Origin: an uncultured Desulfobacterales bacterium
GTDB lineage: Bacteria; Desulfobacterota; Dissulfuribacteria; Dissulfuribacterales; QOAL01
NCBI GenBank assembly: GCA_964573805.1
Contig: CAZNKP010000020.1
Coordinates: 3,761-67,760 of the forward strand
Direction: 5' to 3'
DNA: 64,000 bases
Under the pieces are notes generated by a model. It had not been told where the DNA came from and did not search any database. It was given only the letters and a program-made list of their open reading frames with translations. Shown piece after piece: positions 2,046 through 31,765 of this stretch; positions within the stretch are counted from its first letter, which is position 1; each line of letters starts with the position of its first letter. Both the position numbers and the translations under genes were made by a program.

Positions 2046-4887
2046 GGGCCCTTAGAAGGACCAACCGTTCAACTGGTTTTGATAAAAAGGCGTTTACGCC
2101 AAGCTTCATAAGGAACTCTTCAGTAAGGATATCGCTGTAGCCGCTACATAATATTACAGCCATATCAGGATTTAAAGACCGTGCAGCCTTAATAAGATCG
2201 CTGCCACTTATACCTGGCATTGTCATGTCTGTAATTAAAAGATCCCATCCTTTTGGCGTCTTTTTTAGTTTTTTAAGGGCATCTTGCCCGTTGCGAAATA
2301 CGTCAACCTGAAAATCCATCTCTTCGAGCATGGTCTTAAATATGGAACAAATCATCTCCTCGTCATCTACAAACATAACCCTTTTGCCACTACCGTTTAT
2401 CTTTGTAATCTTAGACACGGGAGGCTGTTTATGATTAGTTGTGGGCTCTTGTTTCAAAACGGGAAGAAAGACTTTAAAAATGCTACCTTTTCCTGGGCTG
2501 CTTTCGACCCTTACACAACCTTTCAGCCCCTTGACGATTCCGTGTACAACGGCCAGACCAAGACCTGTACCCTCGTCTTGATTTTTGGTAGTAAAATAGG
2601 GTTCGAATATCTTGTCCAACATGTCTTGTTCCATTCCACAACCAGTATCTGCCACCTGGAGCACTGCATAGCTTCCCGGTCTCAGACCCAATTCCTGGGC
2701 TTCGTTGTCCGTGAGTTTCTTTTCGTAGAGGGCAATGGCAAGGATACCTCCGCTTTCTCGCATGGCGTGGTAGGCATTTGTGCATAGATTCATGACAATT
2801 TGGTGAAGATCTGAAGGATCTGCCAGTATCTGTCTTGTTGGTCCCATCTGTGTTTCTATTGTTATATTTGCTGGAAGGGTTGAGCGAAGGAGTTTTAGTG
2901 CCTCGTTTATAATCTTTGCAAGGTCCTGGGGCTCTTTGCGTGCATCGGTATACCTACTAAAAGTTAGAATTTGACGTACAAGCTCTTTTGCCCTTTGGGA
3001 GGCAAGCCCGATCTGGGAGAGATATTTTTGAATCTGAGGGATATCTTGGGCCTTTAATAGAGCCAGTTCAGTGTAACCGGTAATTGCAGCAAGGATATTA
3101 TTGAAGTCGTGGGCTATTCCACCTGCCAAGGTTCCTATGGCCTCCATTTTTTGTGCATGCCTCAGCTCTGCCTCTAGTTCCCTGGTCCTGGTAATGTCTT
3201 GTGTCATTGCAATCAGATATTTGACATTGCCGTTTGAGTCTGTAATAGGAGCAAGGTTAAGAGCTACCAATATATGGCTACCGTCCTTTTTTTTGAACCA
3301 TACTTCATGGTGGACCGTTCCTTTACCGGCCTTGATGTTGGCAAGAACCTTTTCCCTGTCAGCCAGGTTTACATAAAGATTATAAGTCTTCACCTCTTTT
3401 ATCACTTCTTCTGGAGAGTCATAACCAAAGATCTCTGCAAAACGGGGGTTCACTGCGATAAAGTCTCCATTTATGGAGCTGAGAGAGATACCTTCGCTTG
3501 CACGGTTAAATATGGTCCTATATCTTTCTTCGCTGTTCCGTAATTCTCTAGTCCTCTTGTTGAAATAGTAGGCTAATTCTCCTAGCTCGTTGTTGGCAGG
3601 TATGTCTAGTTCAAGAGACAGGTCCTCAGAATCCTTTTCGATTTTTTTTAATTGATCTGTTATATGTCTAAGCGGCCTTAGAATGTGGTGGTAAAGGGAA
3701 AGGCCGGCTAAAAAAAGCACCAGAAGTATCAGCACCGCCAGAGAGATGACAATACTGTTAGTAACTTGGCTTACTGGGGCTACTGCCATGCGTCTTGGGA
3801 TCGTAACCACAAGCTTCCAGTTGGTCTCTGGCATAAGGAATACAGAAACCATGGCCGGTTCCTGTAAAATGATATCATTATCGACAGAAAAGCTTTCGAC
3901 CCTACTTGTCACAGACAGCCGGTTTTCCTTTGGTTCACTTAGGTAGGCAGCAATAAGAAGGGCCTCTTTGGGAGTTATATGGTTAGATTCTTCAAGGAGT
4001 TTTTTAGCAAGCCGTTCAACGTTGCCTTTTCGGCAAGCCCTTTCAATTATTGCCTTGTTGAGCTGCTCCAGCTTGTCACTTATTGGTTTGAACTCAGGAT
4101 ATTGTTGGGCGAGTTCCCTGCTTGTAATGTATCTACGTGTGGATAAGCCCTTATGCTCAGACCCTTTTATTAGGATATACTCTTTCCTTGGAAATACAAT
4201 AAATCTATTATTGCGATCTACTGCAAAGATGTACCCTTTTATCTCTTTTGCAGTTTCTGAGAAAAGCTTGTCAAGCCCTGACAGCTTAAGATCAACTGTA
4301 GCCACCCCAAGGAACTGGCCATTTTTATCCATCCTTATAGAACAGGTGACCATAGGTTCATGGGAAAATGGATCTATATAGGCACTAGACCAAAACACCT
4401 TATTGCCCTTTAGGTATTTTACAGGGACATACCATTCTTCTTTGTGGTATCCTGATAAATTATAATCGTTGTAAAATCTTAAACGTCCATTGCTATCCCT
4501 TCCCCAAAAGAAACTGAATCTTTCCTTAGAAGGATCAAATTTAAAAGGTTCTGGCCAGATTCCCCCTCCTGCTGTTATTTGATCAAGACTATCCATATCA
4601 AATATATTTGGCACGGTCTTTTTGATTGCTTCAAAATTTGGAAGAAGGCCCGTTGCCGTAGACCCCACCATAGAAGCTGCTATTTCTGTCTGGCCAAGCA
4701 TACTGTTTATTTTAGTGACTACACTTTTGCCCGTTTCGCCAATACCGTACATTCTTTCCTTTAACAAAACGGGTTTTATTATCGTATGAGTGGAGTAGAC
4801 TACAACAACGATGACAGCTGCTAGAAGTAGCAAAAAGCAAATGGGTACAAAAATTTGTATATTATGTCTGAATTTCGGTTGGGTCAT
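2023..4887 (-). CDS. Membrane hybrid sensor histidine kinase (dCache-HAMP-PAS-HisKA-HATPase-REC)
   Basis: Two TM segments flank a Cache-like region (WYVP...AYIDP); HAMP (ELGELA); H-box GGIAHDFNN; NLCTNA, DTGCG, GTGLGL; C-terminal receiver (VDDE, DMTMP, KP). Confidence 0.9.
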   Translation of the reverse strand: MTQPKFRHNIQIFVPICFLLLLAAVIVVVVYSTHTIIKPVLLKERMYGIGETGKSVVTKINSMLGQTEIAASMVGSTATGLLPNFEAIKKTVPNIFDMDSLDQITAGGGIWPEPFKFDPSKERFSFFWGRDSNGRLRFYNDYNLSGYHKEEWYVPVKYLKGNKVFWSSAYIDPFSHEPMVTCSIRMDKNGQFLGVATVDLKLSGLDKLFSETAKEIKGYIFAVDRNNRFIVFPRKEYILIKGSEHKGLSTRRYITSRELAQQYPEFKPISDKLEQLNKAIIERACRKGNVERLAKKLLEESNHITPKEALLIAAYLSEPKENRLSVTSRVESFSVDNDIILQEPAMVSVFLMPETNWKLVVTIPRRMAVAPVSQVTNSIVISLAVLILLVLFLAGLSLYHHILRPLRHITDQLKKIEKDSEDLSLELDIPANNELGELAYYFNKRTRELRNSEERYRTIFNRASEGISLSSINGDFIAVNPRFAEIFGYDSPEEVIKEVKTYNLYVNLADREKVLANIKAGKGTVHHEVWFKKKDGSHILVALNLAPITDSNGNVKYLIAMTQDITRTRELEAELRHAQKMEAIGTLAGGIAHDFNNILAAITGYTELALLKAQDIPQIQKYLSQIGLASQRAKELVRQILTFSRYTDARKEPQDLAKIINEALKLLRSTLPANITIETQMGPTRQILADPSDLHQIVMNLCTNAYHAMRESGGILAIALYEKKLTDNEAQELGLRPGSYAVLQVADTGCGMEQDMLDKIFEPYFTTKNQDEGTGLGLAVVHGIVKGLKGCVRVESSPGKGSIFKVFLPVLKQEPTTNHKQPPVSKITKINGSGKRVMFVDDEEMICSIFKTMLEEMDFQVDVFRNGQDALKKLKKTPKGWDLLITDMTMPGISGSDLIKAARSLNPDMAVILCSGYSDILTEEFLMKLGVNAFLSKPVERLVLLRALAKIFPG

Positions 4888-8090: not shown

Positions 8091-9284
8091 ATGCACCGTC
8101 CTGATTCGAGTCTCAAGGTACTTCACGTTACAACTTCCTTTCCAAGCGGTCCAGGTGACGTTGCCGGCCCTTTCATACTACGCCTTGTTGAGAGTCTTCA
8201 AAGGGATTGTCATATCGAGTGCACGGTGCTTACCCCAGGGAACACCAGTGGCTCTAGTTGGCCAGAATATATGAAGGTGGTGCGATTCCCATATGGACCG
8301 AGACCCTTTCAAATTCTTGCACAACGGCCTGGAGGGATTCCTCAAGCCCTCAAGGAGTCGAAACTCTCATGGTTCCTTCTTCCCTCCATGATGATGTCCA
8401 TGTGGTACTGGATTCAGAGGCTGTCTAAGGAACATCACCTTGTGCATGCCCACTGGTCTGCATCTGGCGCCGTAGCAACCTTTGGAGTCAAAAAAAGGGG
8501 GCTAGTGGTTACCCTGCATGGATCAGACGTCAACAGGGCACGGCCAGGAAATGTTTTTCACCTGCTCCTTGGCAGGGTTGTTTCTTCGGCCGACTATGTT
8601 GCCCTAGTCAGTAGGGATATGGAGGCGAGACTCAAAAGGGACTATAGCATAGATGAAAACAAGGTAGGTTTCGTCCCAAATGGGGTTTCCCAGGACTTTT
8701 TTGACATAGATCCAAGTGCAAGATGGAAAGGGGGCTTATTCAGGTTTCTCTTTGTGGGTTCCCTTATAAAATCAAAGGGATTGGACGTGTTGTTGACGGC
8801 CCTTTCAAAACTGGATGTCGGGCTGGAGTGGGAGTTGGTCATCCTTGGAGATGGACCAGAAAGGACTTCATTGGAGGAACTGGCCGGAAACCTTGGCATT
8901 GGGGCTAGGATCTCCTTTGCCGGAGGGGTTGGTCCTTCTGCCGTGAGTCGATATATGGAAAAGGCCCATTGTTTGGTCCTGCCTTCATACTCCGAAGGAA
9001 GACCGAGCGTCATTCTCGAGGCCATGGCGGCTTCTCTGCCGGTAGTGGCGTCTGACATTCCAGGCAACAGGGAACTTGTCAGGCACAGACGGACAGGCTG
9101 TCTATTCCAGCCGGGAGACGTGAAAGGTCTGGCCCAGACACTGGCCCTTTTGTTGACAGACCATGAACTTGGCCAAAGGATGGGGGCAGAAGGACGAGCA
9201 TGGATGGTACATCAGGGACTTACATGGAAAAGCACTGCCAGGCGTTATGCTGAGATTTACAAAAAAATCGTCTCTTCCAAGTAA
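8091..9284 (+). CDS. Glycosyltransferase family 4 (GT-B)
   Basis: HAHW, TLHGSD, FVGSLIKSKG, EGRPSVILEAMA (E-x7-E). Confidence 0.88.
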   Translation: MHRPDSSLKVLHVTTSFPSGPGDVAGPFILRLVESLQRDCHIECTVLTPGNTSGSSWPEYMKVVRFPYGPRPFQILAQRPGGIPQALKESKLSWFLLPSMMMSMWYWIQRLSKEHHLVHAHWSASGAVATFGVKKRGLVVTLHGSDVNRARPGNVFHLLLGRVVSSADYVALVSRDMEARLKRDYSIDENKVGFVPNGVSQDFFDIDPSARWKGGLFRFLFVGSLIKSKGLDVLLTALSKLDVGLEWELVILGDGPERTSLEELAGNLGIGARISFAGGVGPSAVSRYMEKAHCLVLPSYSEGRPSVILEAMAASLPVVASDIPGNRELVRHRRTGCLFQPGDVKGLAQTLALLLTDHELGQRMGAEGRAWMVHQGLTWKSTARRYAEIYKKIVSSK

Positions 9285-9294
9285 GAGCCCTCCC

Positions 9295-10440
9295 TCAGCC
9301 TTTGAGGACTTTGGCATACCGTTTCCCGATCTTTTCTGGCATGAAATCCCTGGCTCTTGCAAGGCCTGCGCTCTTGAGCCGTTCTTGCAAATCACCATTT
9401 CTATATATCTTGAGCATGGCCTTTGTCAGGGCTTCCGGATTGTCTGGAGGAACAAGGAGGCCACACTTGCCATTCTGCAAAATTTCCCTCGGACCCGTCC
9501 TGCAGTCAGCAGCAACCACTGGGCATTGGCAAGACAAGGCTTCAGGTAGCACGTTGGGCCAGCCCTCGTATCTCGACGGATGAACAAGCATATTGGCTCT
9601 GAGCATGAGTGCCCTGGGCTCTGATGTCCATCCCATAAAAAAGACCTTATTCATGATCCCAAGCCTCTTGGCCATCTCTCTGAGTTTTGCCGCGTCTGGT
9701 CCGTCCCCTGCAAATACGAGATTCAAACGCGGCACCTCCCTGAGCAGATTCTTGAAGGCGTGCAGCGTGAGGTCCTGGCCCTTGGCGGCAATGTTGAGTC
9801 GTCCAACCTGCAGGATGAATGGAGGAGGTGCCTTTGTGGATGCGATGGATTCCACCTTGATTGGAGACGTGTCAATGGGGTTAGGGATGAAACACAGCCT
9901 GCAAGGGTCTATTCCGTAAGTGTGGGCTAGGATGGTGCAGATTTCTTCGGATACGCAAATTATCTTATCCGCTCGTTTGTAGGTACGACTGCTTGCCACC
10001 ATTATCAGTTTGCCAAGAAGCCCTTTGTACTCGTACTGTTTCAAAGGATTTGTCCGCTGGGACAGAAAACACCTGTGGCCTGTGAAACCAGAGGCTAGAA
10101 CGTTAATGATGTTAGCCTGCTCCATAAAACTCAAAACAGAATCGATTTGCAGTCGTCTGACCATTCTTGCCAGACGAGATACCTGCAAGGGAATGCGCAG
10201 GATGTGACGCAACGAGGAGTTGGTTCGAGGAGAAATGGCAACCACTTCCAATCCTTGGGGCAACTTGTGGACTTGCTCGTTGCTCAGGAGCACAGTCTTT
10301 AAGAAAAATTCCCTTGCCAGAACTGGAATCAGGATGGATGCTGTCTTTTCGGCACCGCCGCCTCCAAGGGATGGAATGAGAAATATCACCCTGTTGATGC
10401 GGCCATTTTCTTGATTGAATGAATTTATTTTAGCCGACAT
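9295..10440 (-). CDS. Glycosyltransferase family 4 (PglJ/WbnH-like)
   Basis: LGGGGAEK, VGRL...KG, EGWPNVLPEALSC. Confidence 0.88.
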   Translation of the reverse strand: MSAKINSFNQENGRINRVIFLIPSLGGGGAEKTASILIPVLAREFFLKTVLLSNEQVHKLPQGLEVVAISPRTNSSLRHILRIPLQVSRLARMVRRLQIDSVLSFMEQANIINVLASGFTGHRCFLSQRTNPLKQYEYKGLLGKLIMVASSRTYKRADKIICVSEEICTILAHTYGIDPCRLCFIPNPIDTSPIKVESIASTKAPPPFILQVGRLNIAAKGQDLTLHAFKNLLREVPRLNLVFAGDGPDAAKLREMAKRLGIMNKVFFMGWTSEPRALMLRANMLVHPSRYEGWPNVLPEALSCQCPVVAADCRTGPREILQNGKCGLLVPPDNPEALTKAMLKIYRNGDLQERLKSAGLARARDFMPEKIGKRYAKVLKG

Positions 10441-19810: not shown

Positions 19811-19912
19811 GATAGCCAGGCACCCCTGCGGCACACGAAGGGTCCCACTACCGTTGCTTCCTTCCGGACCTGGCGGGGTTCGCGGGATTTCGTTGCGCAG
19901 GACCCGGCTATC
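19811..19912 (-). ncRNA. ffs: Signal recognition particle RNA (4.5S type)
   Basis: Minus strand GATAGCCGGG...CAGGTCCGGAAGGAAGCAAC...CCTGGCTATC; long hairpin with GGAA tetraloop; upstream of dnaX. Confidence 0.93.
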
Positions 19913-19929
19913 AAAAGGTATCCAGTTTG

Positions 19930-20020
<91 letters not shown>

Positions 20021-20046
20021 ATAAACATATTCAAAATAGGTTCACT

Positions 20047-20076
20047 CTTATACACTTTCAAGGCCCATTGAGTCAA
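20047..20076 (-). promoter_or_regulatory. Sigma70-type promoter for tRNA-Ser(GGA)/ffs
   Basis: Minus strand TTGACT, 18 nt spacer, TATAAG. Confidence 0.45.
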
Positions 20077-20090
20077 CAAAATAAAATGAG

Positions 20091-20184
<94 letters not shown>

Positions 20185-26192: not shown

Positions 26193-26591
26193 TTAATGTT
26201 TCCCTGGGGCAAGGGGTTTCCCCCTTCGTTCATAAGTAATATACGCCTCTAGGGCTATCATCTTGGGATCATCTAGTTTGAGCGGTTCTCCTTCAAGGGG
26301 ATTTTGTATGCACCAGTTGATCATGTCTCTAAGTGCGACCACCTTGCCAATCTGTTTCTGGAATTTGGGATAGGTCTCCGGGTGAGTATTTGAGGCATTT
26401 GGATGACACATGTCGCAGGAAACCTTGTTGGTTCCAAGGGCACTGTGAAATAACCTGTCTCCCTCTTTTACAACGGTCATAAATTCCTTATTCCATTTTT
26501 CCAGGTCCTTCTGGGTGAATTCATCTGAAATGGCCAAATTGCCAATTCCAATAAAGAATACCAAGCTGATTAATGATAGTAGTTTTTTCAT
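26193..26591 (-). CDS. Periplasmic monoheme cytochrome c, SoxA/TsdA-like heme domain
   Basis: Signal peptide; single CDMCH; TYPKF...LRDMINWCIQNPLEG resembles the SoxA/TsdA segment that carries the Cys ligand. Confidence 0.75.
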   Translation of the reverse strand: MKKLLSLISLVFFIGIGNLAISDEFTQKDLEKWNKEFMTVVKEGDRLFHSALGTNKVSCDMCHPNASNTHPETYPKFQKQIGKVVALRDMINWCIQNPLEGEPLKLDDPKMIALEAYITYERRGKPLAPGKH

Positions 26592-26606
26592 GTCTATTGT
26601 CTCCTT

Positions 26607-27680
26607 TTAATAGTGTTGCTGAGGTGGAATCCGCCTTTCAGGATTTTGGTATTCGATATCAACTGGGTAACCGAGTTTTTTATCGTATCTGATTACACGA
26701 TCCCTGTTCTCCCACAGCTTGTAATGATTGGTTACCCGGCCATCTTCAAGGTTAAGGACAGACCAGCCTGTTGCATCCCTCTCATGGAAAGGATCGGCCC
26801 TGTTCATAAACACAGTAATCTTGGGAACTAGGTTGGGTTTCTGGATATAGCTTGGTGGATAGGGCCATGGCCAAGCCGTAGACATCATTGCCTGAAAGGT
26901 GATATTACCTATCTGATTATAAAGAATCTGGTGTACGTGGCCATGAAGGACAGTGACCTTTTCAAAGGGCTGAAGTAACGCCTGCACCTTTTCTGCATCA
27001 TCTGTCCAGAAGTTCCAGGGTTTGAAAATCTTGTAGAGAGGTGAATGAGACATGACTACTACCGGCGTCTCCTTAGATATTTTAGACAGGTCCTTTCTCA
27101 ACCATTCGAGCTGTGTGTTTCCTACCATGAACGGGGAACCTTCTGGATTGTCAAGGCGCGCCATGTTGTTCATCCGTTCTTCAGGGCTTTTCCATCTATT
27201 CATCCAGGTGTTGTAGGTGAGTATCGAATTGAGCACCACGAAGTGGATGCCCTTATGATTAAAGCTGTAGGTGGTCTTTGAAATCTTGTCTTCCCAGAAC
27301 CTTCCAAGGTCAAGATAATAGTCGTGCTCACCTATGACCCATCTTATCGGGTGTCTGAGCCTCGACATGATCTCAAGCCCATGTTCAAGCTCTTCCCTTT
27401 TGCCAAGCTGTGCAAGATCTCCTCCATATACTACAAAGTCCGGTTTCGGAGACATAAAGTTGCACTCAGTAACTGCTCTTTTTAGACCCTTGTCAAAATT
27501 TCTGACAAATTCGGTACCCTTGATATGGGTGAGATGGGAATCCGAGATATAGGCAAGGGTGAAATTTTGGCGATCGTTCTTCCCCCATGAAAATTCCACC
27601 AGGCCTAGGGGCAGGCTCGCTGCTGCGGCAACGGCTGCCCCTGCTTTTATAAATCCCCTTCGTGTAATTTTTTTCTTCAC
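26607..27680 (-). CDS. Tat-exported calcineurin-like metallophosphoesterase
   Basis: TRRGFIK twin-arginine signal; ISDSH, GGDL, GEHD, MSHSP and HGHVH motifs. Confidence 0.85.
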   Translation of the reverse strand: MKKKITRRGFIKAGAAVAAAASLPLGLVEFSWGKNDRQNFTLAYISDSHLTHIKGTEFVRNFDKGLKRAVTECNFMSPKPDFVVYGGDLAQLGKREELEHGLEIMSRLRHPIRWVIGEHDYYLDLGRFWEDKISKTTYSFNHKGIHFVVLNSILTYNTWMNRWKSPEERMNNMARLDNPEGSPFMVGNTQLEWLRKDLSKISKETPVVVMSHSPLYKIFKPWNFWTDDAEKVQALLQPFEKVTVLHGHVHQILYNQIGNITFQAMMSTAWPWPYPPSYIQKPNLVPKITVFMNRADPFHERDATGWSVLNLEDGRVTNHYKLWENRDRVIRYDKKLGYPVDIEYQNPERRIPPQQHY

Positions 27681-27692
27681 TGCTTCCTCCTT

Positions 27693-28805
27693 TTATTTGT
27701 TGTTTTTAAGCAATGTTTGATATGCTGGGCTGGTTAAGGCCTTGAGAAATTCAAGCAGATCAAGCTTTTCTTGTTCTGTAAGATTGAGTGGCCTTATTCC
27801 GCTGTCCAGCATCGGGTTATCCTCACCGCCCTGATCGTAAAGTTCAATAACCTCTTCCAGGGTTTCTATGCTTCCGTCATGCATATAAGGGCCTGTCACA
27901 GCCACGTTTCTTAGCGTAGGGGTCTTAAATCTGCCAATGTCTTCTATATCCATGGTTACTGCAAAACGCCCCAGCTCTGAAATTTCCTGTTTTTCAAGAA
28001 CTTTTTCATCTAAGGCCAGTCCTTTGGATTTTGCCTTTCTGATTTTTTCCACTATTGCCATGAGTTTTGGCTCGATCCTGAAAAATCCCACCCCAAGATT
28101 GTGAAATTTGTTGTCTGTAAATATTGCGCTTGTCTGGCTGATTGTATGACAATCCTGGCATCTTGCCTTGGTGCGGAAAATGTCGAGTCCGCGGATTGCT
28201 GCCTTTGACATTGCATCCTTTTCTCTGCCATACATGTATCTATCAAAGGGGGAATCTCCAGAAATCACGGTCCTCTCAAAGGAGGCTATGGCCTTTACAA
28301 CATGGTTTATGTTGATATCAGCAGTTTTTACCCCAAAGGCCTTGTTAAAAAGCGAGGGGTATTCATGGTCTTTTGTTATTATTTCAATTATTGGCGAAAA
28401 GTCTTTAAGGCCGTGTTCTACCGGATTTATAAAAGGGCCCTTTGCCTGTTCTTCCAAGGTTTCTACTCTCCCGTCCCAAAATTGGGAGGTGTAATAGGCT
28501 GAATTTATTACTGTAGGTGAATTTCTTGTCCCTTTTTTCTTTTGAATTCCTCGGGCCACAGGACGACCATCTGTAAACGCCTTTTGGGGATCATGGCAGG
28601 TGGCGCAGCTCACAGTGGAATCAGCGCTAAACCTCTTGTCCTCAAAAAGACGCTTCCCCAGTATTATTTTGGCTGGGTTCTGCTGATTGTCTGCAGGTAT
28701 GGGAACCGGTGGCAGCCCTAAAGGGGTGTCGTGTCCTCCCGCAAGCGTTATTCCTGCAACGGACAAGACAATCAAGACAACAAAAAACACAGTGATTTTT
28801 TTCAT
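27693..28805 (-). CDS. Diheme bCcP/MauG-superfamily enzyme (MauG-like)
   Basis: Signal peptide; CATCH and CQDCH; RNSPT, QFWDGR, NPVE, FKTPTLRN, PYMHDG, ELY. Confidence 0.9.
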   Translation of the reverse strand: MKKITVFFVVLIVLSVAGITLAGGHDTPLGLPPVPIPADNQQNPAKIILGKRLFEDKRFSADSTVSCATCHDPQKAFTDGRPVARGIQKKKGTRNSPTVINSAYYTSQFWDGRVETLEEQAKGPFINPVEHGLKDFSPIIEIITKDHEYPSLFNKAFGVKTADININHVVKAIASFERTVISGDSPFDRYMYGREKDAMSKAAIRGLDIFRTKARCQDCHTISQTSAIFTDNKFHNLGVGFFRIEPKLMAIVEKIRKAKSKGLALDEKVLEKQEISELGRFAVTMDIEDIGRFKTPTLRNVAVTGPYMHDGSIETLEEVIELYDQGGEDNPMLDSGIRPLNLTEQEKLDLLEFLKALTSPAYQTLLKNNK

Positions 28806-28948
28806 AAATACTTTCCTCCTTTTAACAATGATGTTTTATGCCAATCAAGGGCGTTGCTAATAATAGAAACTAAGTCCATTTTTCAAGTAGTTTAGATTTA
28901 AAACTAATTCAGAATAATTCTTTAAATTGATGCAAAAAATTTTATTTG

Positions 28949-29416
28949 TCATTTTCCATTTTTTTTAAGGCATTCTTTGCAGACGCCCCTAATTTCCACC
29001 ACTTGATCAACCACTTTGCCATAGTTCGCTAACTCCTTTGGAAGAGGAATCGTATCAAATTCTGGCCATTTAAAATCTATTATTTTTTTACATATCTTAC
29101 AAACAAAGTGATGATGCATGGATAAGTCTGGCTCAAACCTGATGTAATCAAAGACCTGAACCCGCCTGATAAGGCCCAGCTGCTCAAGAGTCGATAAGGT
29201 TCTGTAAACTGTATCAAGGGAAATGGTGGGCGCATCCTCTTTTAAGCGTTCGTATAAAACTTCGGCTGAAGGGTGATCCTTTGCATCCATTATAGCATTG
29301 TATATCATGATTCTTTGATGAGTCAGCCTGAGACCTGCCTCTTCAAAGACTTTTCTCAACTCCTCGATAGACAGCCTATCGGCAACTTTTTTAATTTTGT
29401 TTTCTGCCATTTTCAT
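28949..29416 (-). CDS. Fur-family (PerR-like) transcriptional regulator
   Basis: HPSAE, TVYRTL, HHHFVCKIC, CKEC; start adjusted. Confidence 0.88.
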   Translation of the reverse strand: MKMAENKIKKVADRLSIEELRKVFEEAGLRLTHQRIMIYNAIMDAKDHPSAEVLYERLKEDAPTISLDTVYRTLSTLEQLGLIRRVQVFDYIRFEPDLSMHHHFVCKICKKIIDFKWPEFDTIPLPKELANYGKVVDQVVEIRGVCKECLKKNGK

Positions 29417-29548
29417 TGGAAATATTAATTCATAATCATTCTTATTTAAGAAGAACACAAAACGATATCTTTTGCAAGGGGAAAACCGGCTTTTTTTGGG
29501 GTTTAAAAATTATCTACAGATCTGATAGCAGGGACATTAGATCTTCCT

Positions 29549-31025: not shown

Positions 31026-31376
31026 CTATTTAAAAAATAGATAGCAGGCAAGACCAAAGAGTACTAAAGCAAAAATCTTTCTGAACTGCCCTGTGGATAC
31101 ATGCTCAAGCAACTGGGCTCCTAGCTGGGCTCCTGCTAATCCCCCAAGTCCCAAGAGCAATCCGGTTTTGACATCCACATTATGGAGCTTGCCATGGGCC
31201 AAGAGGGCCGATCCGCTAATGACAAGTATGGTAACGAAGCTCGTACCAACTGCCTTTTGGGCATCGTATCCCATAAATAACAGTATGGGCACAACCAAAA
31301 ATCCTCCCCCAAGGCCTGTAAAAGATGCCCCAATTCCTATGGCAGTCCCAAAAAACAAAAGCGTAGCCCAATTCAT
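31026..31376 (-). CDS. Half-size TauE/SafE (TSUP) family membrane protein
   Basis: GLGGGFLVVP, AVGTS, G..GAQLGA; about 4 TM helices in 116 aa. Confidence 0.8.
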   Translation of the reverse strand: MNWATLLFFGTAIGIGASFTGLGGGFLVVPILLFMGYDAQKAVGTSFVTILVISGSALLAHGKLHNVDVKTGLLLGLGGLAGAQLGAQLLEHVSTGQFRKIFALVLFGLACYLFFK

Positions 31377-31474: not shown

Positions 31475-31765
31475 ATGCAGTGTACTACCAACAGGCCGGG
31501 AGATGAATGCAAATTTATGGGAAAAAAAGGGTGCACTTTTATTGGTGGCGCTTGTTTCCAGATAATTGAAAAATGTGAAGGATGCAACAAAATTGTTGAA
31601 ACTGCTGCTGGACGTTTTTGTGCCGTATTTCCTCATCCAGAGATGAAGTGGAAAAGAGGAGTGTGCAACTTTGCAAGCCATGTGAAACCGGAGATAAAAC
31701 AGGATGCCTCTGGAAAAGCGATAAATCCACTAAAGGCGGCAAAGAGGGCATCAAGGGGTCGCTAG
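31475..31765 (+). CDS. PxxKW family cysteine-rich protein
   Basis: Eight Cys; PEMKW motif; CNFASH; NPLKAAKR tail. Confidence 0.8.
   Translation: MQCTTNRPGDECKFMGKKGCTFIGGACFQIIEKCEGCNKIVETAAGRFCAVFPHPEMKWKRGVCNFASHVKPEIKQDASGKAINPLKAAKRASRGR

Follow-up and report, generated by a model that had tools for sequence, protein, structure and literature searches.

We analyzed a 64-kb stretch of DNA from an uncultured Desulfobacterales bacterium (contig CAZNKP010000020.1; "the window", whose positions are used below), and focused on three genes that lie head to tail on its minus strand and encode, in this order, a diheme enzyme, a metallophosphoesterase (MPE), and a monoheme cytochrome. In the list of open reading frames (ORFs), the diheme enzyme gene (27693–28805) encodes 370 aa, the MPE gene (26607–27680) has a GTG start and encodes 357 aa, and the cytochrome gene (26193–26591) encodes 132 aa. 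The intergenic gaps are only 12 nt (AAGGAGGAAGCA) and 15 nt (AAGGAGACAATAGAC), and both contain an AGGAG-type Shine-Dalgarno sequence, or ribosome-binding site. A gene for a Fur-family regulator (28949–29458, minus strand; Pfam FUR, 2e-25) is found 143 nt upstream of the diheme gene on the same strand. The picture drawn in an earlier, sequence-only reading of this DNA (the initial annotation), of three closely spaced genes for exported proteins with ribosome-binding sites behind a Fur/PerR-like gene, was therefore reproduced at the same coordinates. In databases the three proteins are labeled "cytochrome c peroxidase", "metallophosphoesterase", and "cytochrome C", and our literature searches found no publication that describes this trio or the related operon of clade C introduced below, so that the three-part system and its modular relatives appear to be undescribed.

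Conservation of the trio across genomes had been named beforehand as a test of the initial annotation, and it is extensive. Counting one genome per species, we found at least 574 relatives of the MPE, and gene order was examined in the best 80 of them (clade A). In all 78 clade-A loci that have an upstream flank, the MPE gene is directly preceded by the diheme gene, and in 80 of 80 it is directly followed by the cytochrome gene; the arrangement was the same when look-ups began from the cytochrome. Overall, at least about 570 genomes at the species level and hundreds of contigs from metagenomes carry the trio, which spans many phyla and recurs in a second, more distant clade. This gene order is far beyond chance, and the three exported proteins form a genuine operon that is present in hundreds of bacterial species. 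No natural fusions among the three proteins occur in the top 120 homologues of each, and the long ORFs in the clade-A loci are out-of-frame extensions. Around the clade-A trio, no other conserved genes were found beyond a minority of Fur-like genes (nine loci), peroxiredoxin-type genes, and genes for sensor proteins. About 14 clade-A loci and one clade-B locus have a peroxiredoxin-type gene no more than 6 kb away, and in four of these it comes directly after the cytochrome gene; together with the Fur-like genes, the peroxiredoxin-type genes are the sole recurrent functional neighbors besides the sensor proteins. Neither transporter nor iron-handling genes recur in the trio neighborhoods, and no SoxX-like gene is among the recurrent neighbors.

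The diheme enzyme matches Pfam CCP_MauG (PF03150, 8e-59), has a predicted Sec signal peptide, and carries its two heme-binding CxxCH motifs at C67–H71 and C216–H220. We counted residues in 76 relatives drawn from the trio loci of clade A, and in a clade-B set of 28 sequences. Both CxxCH motifs are kept in 75–76 of the 76 relatives, the inter-heme Trp110 in 75, and the calcium-site Asn N95 in 74, while the catalytic Q120 and E130 are each present in all 76 and Pro124 is essentially invariant; N95, Trp110, and the Gln/Glu pair align with those of the Geobacter peroxidases. Two features set the enzyme apart from true peroxidases, and both had been pointed out in the initial annotation. One is the distal His loop: "GIQKKKG" of the diheme enzyme aligns with "GHGWQKG" of the Geobacter peroxidases, and with "ARGIQKKKGTRNSPT" opposite "SIGHGWQKGPRNSPT" in the alignment, the distal His is absent, its position being I, F, or V in 72 of 76 relatives. 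The other is a Tyr at the position of the peroxidase Met ligand, Tyr323, whose codon is 27837–27839 (28805 - 3 x 322 = 27839). The HMMER alignment coordinates (query 45–325 against chain 9–296) equate Tyr323 with MauG residue 294, and those for the Pseudomonas aeruginosa enzyme (1eb7; sub-query 147, that is L322, against residue 274) equate it with Met275, with "VIELY" standing opposite MbnH "VIDIY" and MacA "VKIM". This Tyr is invariant (75/75 clade-A relatives and 28/28 clade-B sequences) and is the predicted sixth ligand of the second heme. A further claim, that an equivalent of MauG Trp199 is missing before the second CxxCH, also agrees with our data: Trp199 sits two residues before Cys201 in MauG, and by this numbering, rather than by a residue-level alignment, the equivalent is Ala214 at position -2.

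Among NCBIfam families, the best match of the diheme enzyme is the MbnH family (TIGR04039) with 268 bits, under the cut-off of 363, and the MauG family (TIGR03791) follows with 225 bits, under the cut-off of 444. The best solved relative is 6e1c (4.6e-54), whose PDB title is only "Di-heme enzyme" and which we presume to be MbnH; next come Geobacter peroxidases and MauG, and BthA (6nx0) gives a partial match (1e-17). MauG-type enzymes are defined by His/Tyr ligation, which is tied to low heme potentials and to formation of the bis-Fe(IV) state (PMC11892367). Judged by its residues, the diheme enzyme is of the MauG type (His/Tyr, with no distal His), and it represents a new clade of a known kind of enzyme. 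Cobalt stress induces GSU1538 of Geobacter sulfurreducens, a diheme peroxidase described as "MauG-like" (PMC7726332); GSU1538 could not be linked to the diheme enzyme–MPE–cytochrome trio.

The MPE matches Pfam Metallophos (PF00149, 1e-13) and TAT_signal (4e-6), and the twin arginines of its predicted twin-arginine translocation (Tat) signal, R7/R8, are at least 90% conserved in clades A, B, and C. Its predicted metal ligands are D47, H49, D88, E118, H212, H248, and H250. The motifs DSH, GGD, SHS, and GHVH are invariant, and motif III reads GEHD rather than the usual GNHD, so that Glu118, invariant in all three clades, stands where the superfamily has a metal-binding Asn. PWNFW (221–225) and WPWPY (270–274) are also invariant motifs, and the residues that do not vary across clades A–C include W129, W159, W193, W222, W225, W270, W272, Y274, and all metal ligands; Tyr138, His146, and Phe184 are restricted to the clades with the diheme enzyme. 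The MPE is 60–83% identical from Desulfobacterota to Leptospira and Gamma-, Beta-, and Alphaproteobacteria, and its family is narrow: in a search of 1.8 billion representatives, only 79 clusters at 50% identity reached E<=1e-30. The C-terminal 106 residues have no Pfam domain even at E<=10. We modeled the structure with AlphaFold2 from 76 sequences (predicted local distance difference test, pLDDT, 77.6), having discarded a 20-sequence model (pLDDT 62) as too poor. A Foldseek search with this model placed GpdQ at the top (4e-13), followed by Rv0805 and then purple acid phosphatases, and the 5′-nucleotidase/SoxB branch first appeared at rank 33. We describe the MPE as a Tat-exported metallophosphoesterase, predicted to be dinuclear, with a GpdQ/Rv0805/purple-acid-phosphatase-like fold and a putative hydrolase role. 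That the MPE might be a true homologue of SoxB was considered and rejected, given these structural neighbors and the absence of an NCBIfam SoxB match.

The cytochrome consists of a predicted Sec signal peptide and one SoxA/TsdA domain (SoxA-TsdA_cyt-c, PF21342, 4e-16), with a single heme motif, C59xxC62H63. Its Cys94, in the sequence NWC, corresponds in alignments to the Cys found in each of the two SoxA heme domains (1h31) and to that of TsdA "RIGDCF", is invariant in 81 clade-A and 69 clade-B/C sequences, and is the predicted axial heme ligand. The initial annotation's description of a Cys-heme cytochrome fits this well, since the protein has the Cys that ligates heme in solved SoxA/TsdA relatives. 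Against the SoxA family (TIGR04484) it scores 56 bits, under the cut-off of 110. The other conserved motifs are CxxCHP, THPxxYPKFQ, LRDMINWC, and a C-terminal PG[KR]H. This extreme C-terminus (26193–26204; PGKH in the window) is conserved in all three clades, as is that of the MPE (26607–26618), which ends in Tyr357 (...PPQxHY in clade A). Such conserved tails may reach into the active site of a partner.

Two further clades of the MPE were found via plasmid records and a metagenome scan. Clade B, exemplified by a plasmid of Methylocystis sp. MJC1, has an MPE about 45% identical to that of the window and keeps the trio, with the diheme gene upstream in 27 of 28 loci and the cytochrome gene downstream in 36 of 37. 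Clade C, found for example on Sinorhizobium pSymA, in Phyllobacterium, and on many soil contigs, has an MPE about 38% identical to that of the window. Here the MPE–cytochrome pair is kept in 28 of 28 loci, and none of the clade-C loci contains the diheme enzyme. Instead, the upstream gene encodes a protein with an invariant, type-1 copper-like HNTHG...CDAHGWM and a CarboxypepD_reg domain (25/25), and a divergent cbb3-type oxidase, composed of CcoN and a fused FixO/diheme subunit, directly adjoins the operon on the downstream side (12/14). In 11 clade-C loci a fused SoxY-SoxZ is encoded between the cytochrome gene and ccoN (Pfam 5e-18 and 2e-12). This protein (8673–9536 in locus L105 and 2466–3299 in locus L107) has a Tat-like signal, and its carrier-Cys GGCAG is located in the linker between the two domains instead of at the C-terminus; an additional Desulfoferrodoxin-domain Pfam match covers the SoxY region. 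In Sinorhizobium meliloti (pSymA), soxY, soxZ, and flavocytochrome c sulfide dehydrogenase stand alongside the clade-C operon. The clade-C order (L092–L128, L089, and L091) is cupredoxin-like/CarboxypepD_reg protein, GEHD MPE, SoxA-like cytochrome, in some cases fused SoxYZ, and cbb3-type oxidase. An SCO gene is often near these operons and copper-ATPase genes also occur; in rhizobial megaplasmids SCO, hemA, and groEL are found near the operon. Some copies have been disrupted by mobile elements: a plasmid of M. bryophila (L087) has an orphan MPE (57% identical), with neither diheme nor cytochrome gene, beside IS110 genes and gene fragments, and in S. meliloti RCAM1115 (L088) an IS66 insertion splits the cupredoxin-like gene.

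The comparison of the three clades suggests that the fixed unit is the MPE with its cytochrome, and that the variable unit is the reducer of a terminal oxidant, which would be H2O2 in clades A and B and O2 in clade C. Because clade C keeps the MPE–cytochrome pair together with all the invariant Trp and Tyr residues of the MPE, the diheme enzyme looks like an exchangeable terminal-oxidant module and not like a dedicated maturase. This bears directly on the initial annotation, which had proposed a protein-modification/redox system in which the neighboring proteins are candidate substrates for Trp oxidation. The redox half of that proposal fits the exchange of modules, while the protein-modification half is weakened by clade C, in which the same MPE Trp and Tyr residues are equally invariant and the diheme enzyme is missing.

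Control of the operon may involve the Fur-family regulator. Its best NCBIfam match is clostridial PerR (107 bits, under the cut-off of 180). An operator-like motif, AGAATTATTCTGAATTA, with the core palindrome AGAAT-T-ATTCT, is found on the minus strand at 28905–28921, 100 nt upstream of the diheme gene, and a second copy, AGAATGATTATGAATTA, at 29426–29442 on the same strand. Because this second copy falls inside the long GTG-started ORF, the real start of the regulator is probably the ATG at 29416, which would put the motif just upstream of the gene and give a protein of about 155 aa (homologues have 145 aa). The pattern AGAATnATTnTGAATTA (core AGAAT-N-ATTCT) has only these two matches in the window at up to two mismatches, and was derived post hoc from the same two sites. 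In L003, L007, and L081–L083, similar motifs (up to two mismatches) precede the Fur-like gene by 30–46 nt. These make up five of the eight matches in the 0.96 Mb of loci that were fetched, and the match in L077, a sixth, follows a Fur-like ORF at a distance of 30 nt. A Fur-like gene is directly upstream on the same strand in the closest relatives (L001–L007), and in L081–L083, from Dissulfuribacter-like metagenome-assembled genomes, it shares 4 nt with the start of the diheme gene and is translationally coupled to it. A Fur/PerR-like gene is also upstream in three clade-B loci. Taken together, the motif pattern, post hoc as it is, is consistent with autoregulated PerR-type control.

The genes that flank the trio in the window are housekeeping genes (KdtA, CCA/poly(A) polymerase, SpoU, Gmk, and YicC). 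No mau, mauA/B, mbn (methanobactin), or MbnP genes are among them, as the initial annotation had stated for mau and methanobactin genes, and no MbnP-like neighbor occurs in the 80 clade-A loci. A minus-strand ORF of 116 aa at 31026–31376 overlaps with the 5′ end of the CCA/poly(A) polymerase gene, and its match to the TauE/SafE sulfite-exporter profile is confined to the N-terminal half (positions 1–109 of 237). In the Phyllobacterium clade-C locus (L091), the cbb3 genes are followed by a full TauE/SafE gene. On the plus strand, 31475–31765 holds a small Cys-rich ORF of 96 aa with a strong DUF6811 match (9e-35), and on the minus strand, at 19811–20184, a signal recognition particle RNA (82 bits) is followed by two tRNA genes.

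What might such a system do? The way in which partners are exchanged points to a new pathway of oxidation in the periplasm that probably acts on sulfur compounds, more than to a protein-modifying system. The reading that we favor, at slightly less than even confidence, is that the MPE and the His/Cys cytochrome form a Sox-like oxidizing core whose electrons pass to H2O2 via the His/Tyr diheme enzyme, under PerR-like control. We prefer it because of the exchange of modules, because SoxYZ and sulfide dehydrogenase are the only recurring substrate-related genes anywhere in the family, and because of what is known of the Sox proteins: the hemes of SoxA and TsdA are known for chemistry at sulfur-sulfur bonds, and SoxB, which is Tat-exported, is a dinuclear member of the metallophosphoesterase superfamily. 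The adjacency of MPE and cytochrome genes (80/80, 36/37, and 28/28 in clades A, B, and C) supports such a core, as does the Cys94 that the cytochrome shares with SoxA and TsdA, and the Fur/PerR-like and peroxiredoxin-type genes near some of the trios provide a link to peroxide. By analogy with SoxA and TsdA, the Cys-ligated heme would oxidatively capture a reduced sulfur oxyanion such as thiosulfate, and by analogy with SoxB, the dinuclear MPE would then free the oxidized product, sulfate, by hydrolysis, with two electrons leaving through the cytochrome. In clades A and B the His/Tyr diheme enzyme would accept these electrons and reduce H2O2 as a BthA-like low-potential peroxidase, possibly via bis-Fe(IV); we propose that it would react with H2O2 directly because its peroxide-binding heme would be five-coordinate. 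In clade C, electrons from the same core would go to the cupredoxin-like protein and a dedicated cbb3-type oxidase, with O2 as the final acceptor. In the lineage of the window, the PerR-like repressor would turn the operon on during peroxide stress, and the net effect would be that periplasmic H2O2 is removed at the cost of reduced sulfur. BthA, itself a His/Tyr diheme enzyme, turns over H2O2 (PMC6405878), and His/Tyr hemes are of low potential (PMC11892367), which would suit a low-potential His/Cys donor. A broader formulation, which we hold to be rather doubtful, is that the MPE and the monoheme cytochrome make up an unrecognized periplasmic oxidoreductase, either a minimal, non-orthologous replacement of SoxXA plus SoxB or an oxyanion or metal oxidase, that can be plugged either into H2O2, by way of the His/Tyr diheme enzyme, or into O2, by way of the cupredoxin-like protein and a cbb3 oxidase of its own.

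Several observations count against a Sox-like core. In clades A and B no SoxYZ gene lies within 6–7 kb of the trio, and the sulfur substrate is therefore extrapolated from a clade that is only about 38% identical. The MPE is GpdQ/Rv0805/PAP-like (PAP, purple acid phosphatase) and belongs neither to the SoxB/5′-nucleotidase branch nor to the NCBIfam SoxB family. Two of the three characterized His/Tyr diheme enzymes, MauG and MbnH, modify proteins and do not turn over H2O2. In addition, the hosts include Leptospira, Steroidobacter, and Methylomonas, which are not known as sulfur oxidizers, the regulator scores under the PerR cut-off, and its operator motif was defined post hoc.

The precedent of MauG and MbnH leads to another explanation, in which the diheme enzyme would form bis-Fe(IV) with H2O2 and oxidize one or more residues of the MPE or the cytochrome. 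The product would be a protein-derived cofactor or a metal ligand, in the way that MauG acts on preMADH and MbnH on MbnP. We consider such a maturase unlikely, but there is a good deal to be said for it. The nearest relatives of the diheme enzyme modify neighboring proteins (the best NCBIfam match is MbnH, and 6e1c is presumably MbnH as well), the substrates of both MauG and MbnH are encoded next door, and the window enzyme has an invariant Tyr ligand and lacks the distal His. The MPE is rich in Trp, its Tyr138 and His146 are confined to the clades with the diheme enzyme, and MbnP is modified at a WxW motif which the invariant WPW of the MPE resembles. BthA, moreover, always adjoins a putative purple acid phosphatase, and those who discovered BthA proposed this neighbor as the substrate (PMC6405878); purple acid phosphatases are among the structural neighbors of the MPE. 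However, clade C keeps the pair, the GEHD ligand set, and every invariant Trp and Tyr including WPWPY, with no diheme enzyme nearby, and what replaces it is an electron-transfer and oxidase module rather than another modifying enzyme. W270, W272, and Y274 are equally invariant there, and we accordingly discarded WPW as specific evidence for an MbnP-like kynurenine target. The missing Trp199 equivalent (by numbering) and the MbnH-family score under the cut-off also speak against a maturase, and maturation that requires H2O2 would be awkward in strict anaerobes, unless the system serves peroxide stress anyway. If the wiring of the favored reading is kept and only the substrate changed, the MPE site could itself be redox-active or bind a phosphate-like oxyanion. 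It would then oxidize Fe(II) or Mn(II), or else phosphite, arsenite, or sulfite, and the His/Cys heme would serve as the low-potential relay that leads on to H2O2 or O2. The GEHD motif III, invariant in three clades, would be in line with this, as the change from Asn to Glu would make the dinuclear site more anionic, and so would Tat export, which suggests that the MPE is loaded with metal in the cytoplasm, the Fur-family regulator linked to the operon, the SCO and copper-ATPase genes of clade C, and the identity of the partner modules as reductases of terminal oxidants. Yet the idea is purely inferential, transporter and iron-handling genes do not recur, and SoxYZ and sulfide dehydrogenase are the only substrate-related neighbors that do, so we regard it as distinctly improbable. 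Less probable still is ordinary detoxification, in which the diheme protein is a plain cytochrome c peroxidase, the cytochrome its donor from the respiratory chain, and the MPE an unrelated, co-transcribed phosphatase. Database annotations and the PerR-like gene and peroxiredoxins nearby would agree with it, but Tyr takes the place of Met as ligand of the second (E) heme in 75/75 and 28/28 sequences, electrons would have to come from a SoxA-type His/Cys heme instead of a class I His/Met cytochrome, and the MPE, which is never absent and is tied to the cytochrome even where the peroxidase has been replaced, has an identity across phyla that would be unusual for a bystander.

The trio shares features with four known systems and is distinct from each. 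Like the trio, the BthA–phosA pair of Burkholderia combines a His/Tyr diheme enzyme with a secreted protein of the metallophosphoesterase superfamily that is always beside it (PMC6405878). BthA forms bis-Fe(IV), yet turns over H2O2, and its function is still called cryptic (PMC6405878; PMC11892367). However, BthA is only a distant, partial match to the window enzyme and has neither the inter-heme Trp nor the calcium site that the latter keeps, and a SoxA-type cytochrome occurs with the window-type trio, whereas none has been reported with BthA. MbnH–MbnP and MauG–preMADH share with the trio the inter-heme Trp, a neighboring partner gene and, as predicted for the window enzyme, a Tyr ligand and a five-coordinate peroxide heme; the window enzyme differs from them in scoring under both family cut-offs and in having as partners a protein of dinuclear hydrolase fold and a cytochrome. 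The canonical bacterial cytochrome c peroxidases (P. aeruginosa CcpA and G. sulfurreducens MacA/CcpA) resemble the window enzyme in fold, catalytic Gln/Glu, Trp, and calcium-site Asn (the N-terminal domain matches at 1e-37 to 1e-46), and also in periplasmic setting and in regulation by peroxide stress, which is putative for the trio. Unlike them, the window enzyme has Tyr for the Met ligand, lacks the distal His loop, and carries 14 inserted residues between its second CxxCH and PYMHDG. With Sox and TsdA, the trio has in common a heme domain of the SoxA/TsdA family with the conserved Cys, a Tat-exported enzyme of the metallophosphoesterase superfamily with a dinuclear site (predicted for the MPE), and SoxYZ in or beside the clade-C operons. 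In contrast to Sox, the cytochrome is a 132-aa monoheme protein that has no SoxX, the trio has no SoxYZ nearby, and the electron sink would be a peroxide-using diheme enzyme. SoxB is also a two-domain, dinuclear-Mn enzyme of the 5′-nucleotidase type, unlike the 357-aa, GpdQ/PAP-like MPE, and a SoxB-like role of the MPE would therefore be one of analogy, not of family-level homology.

The His/Tyr diheme enzymes MauG, MbnH, and BthA are a small and intensively studied group because of their long-range bis-Fe(IV) chemistry, and two of them have known substrates. The operon described here adds a third or fourth lineage to this group, and one with two obligatory partners. If the MPE and cytochrome are indeed an oxidoreductase core, MauG-type bis-Fe(IV) enzymes would gain a catalytic role of a respiratory type, and a possible function would be at hand for BthA and phosA; if the diheme enzyme is a maturase, a new protein-derived cofactor would be expected in a phosphoesterase fold. 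A core that is wired either to a peroxide enzyme or to an O2 reductase together with SoxYZ suggests that the oxidation of sulfur, or of another substrate, is coupled to peroxide removal at oxic–anoxic interfaces. For soil bacteria, rhizobia among them, the same pattern points to an alternative to the canonical enzymes SoxAX and SoxB.

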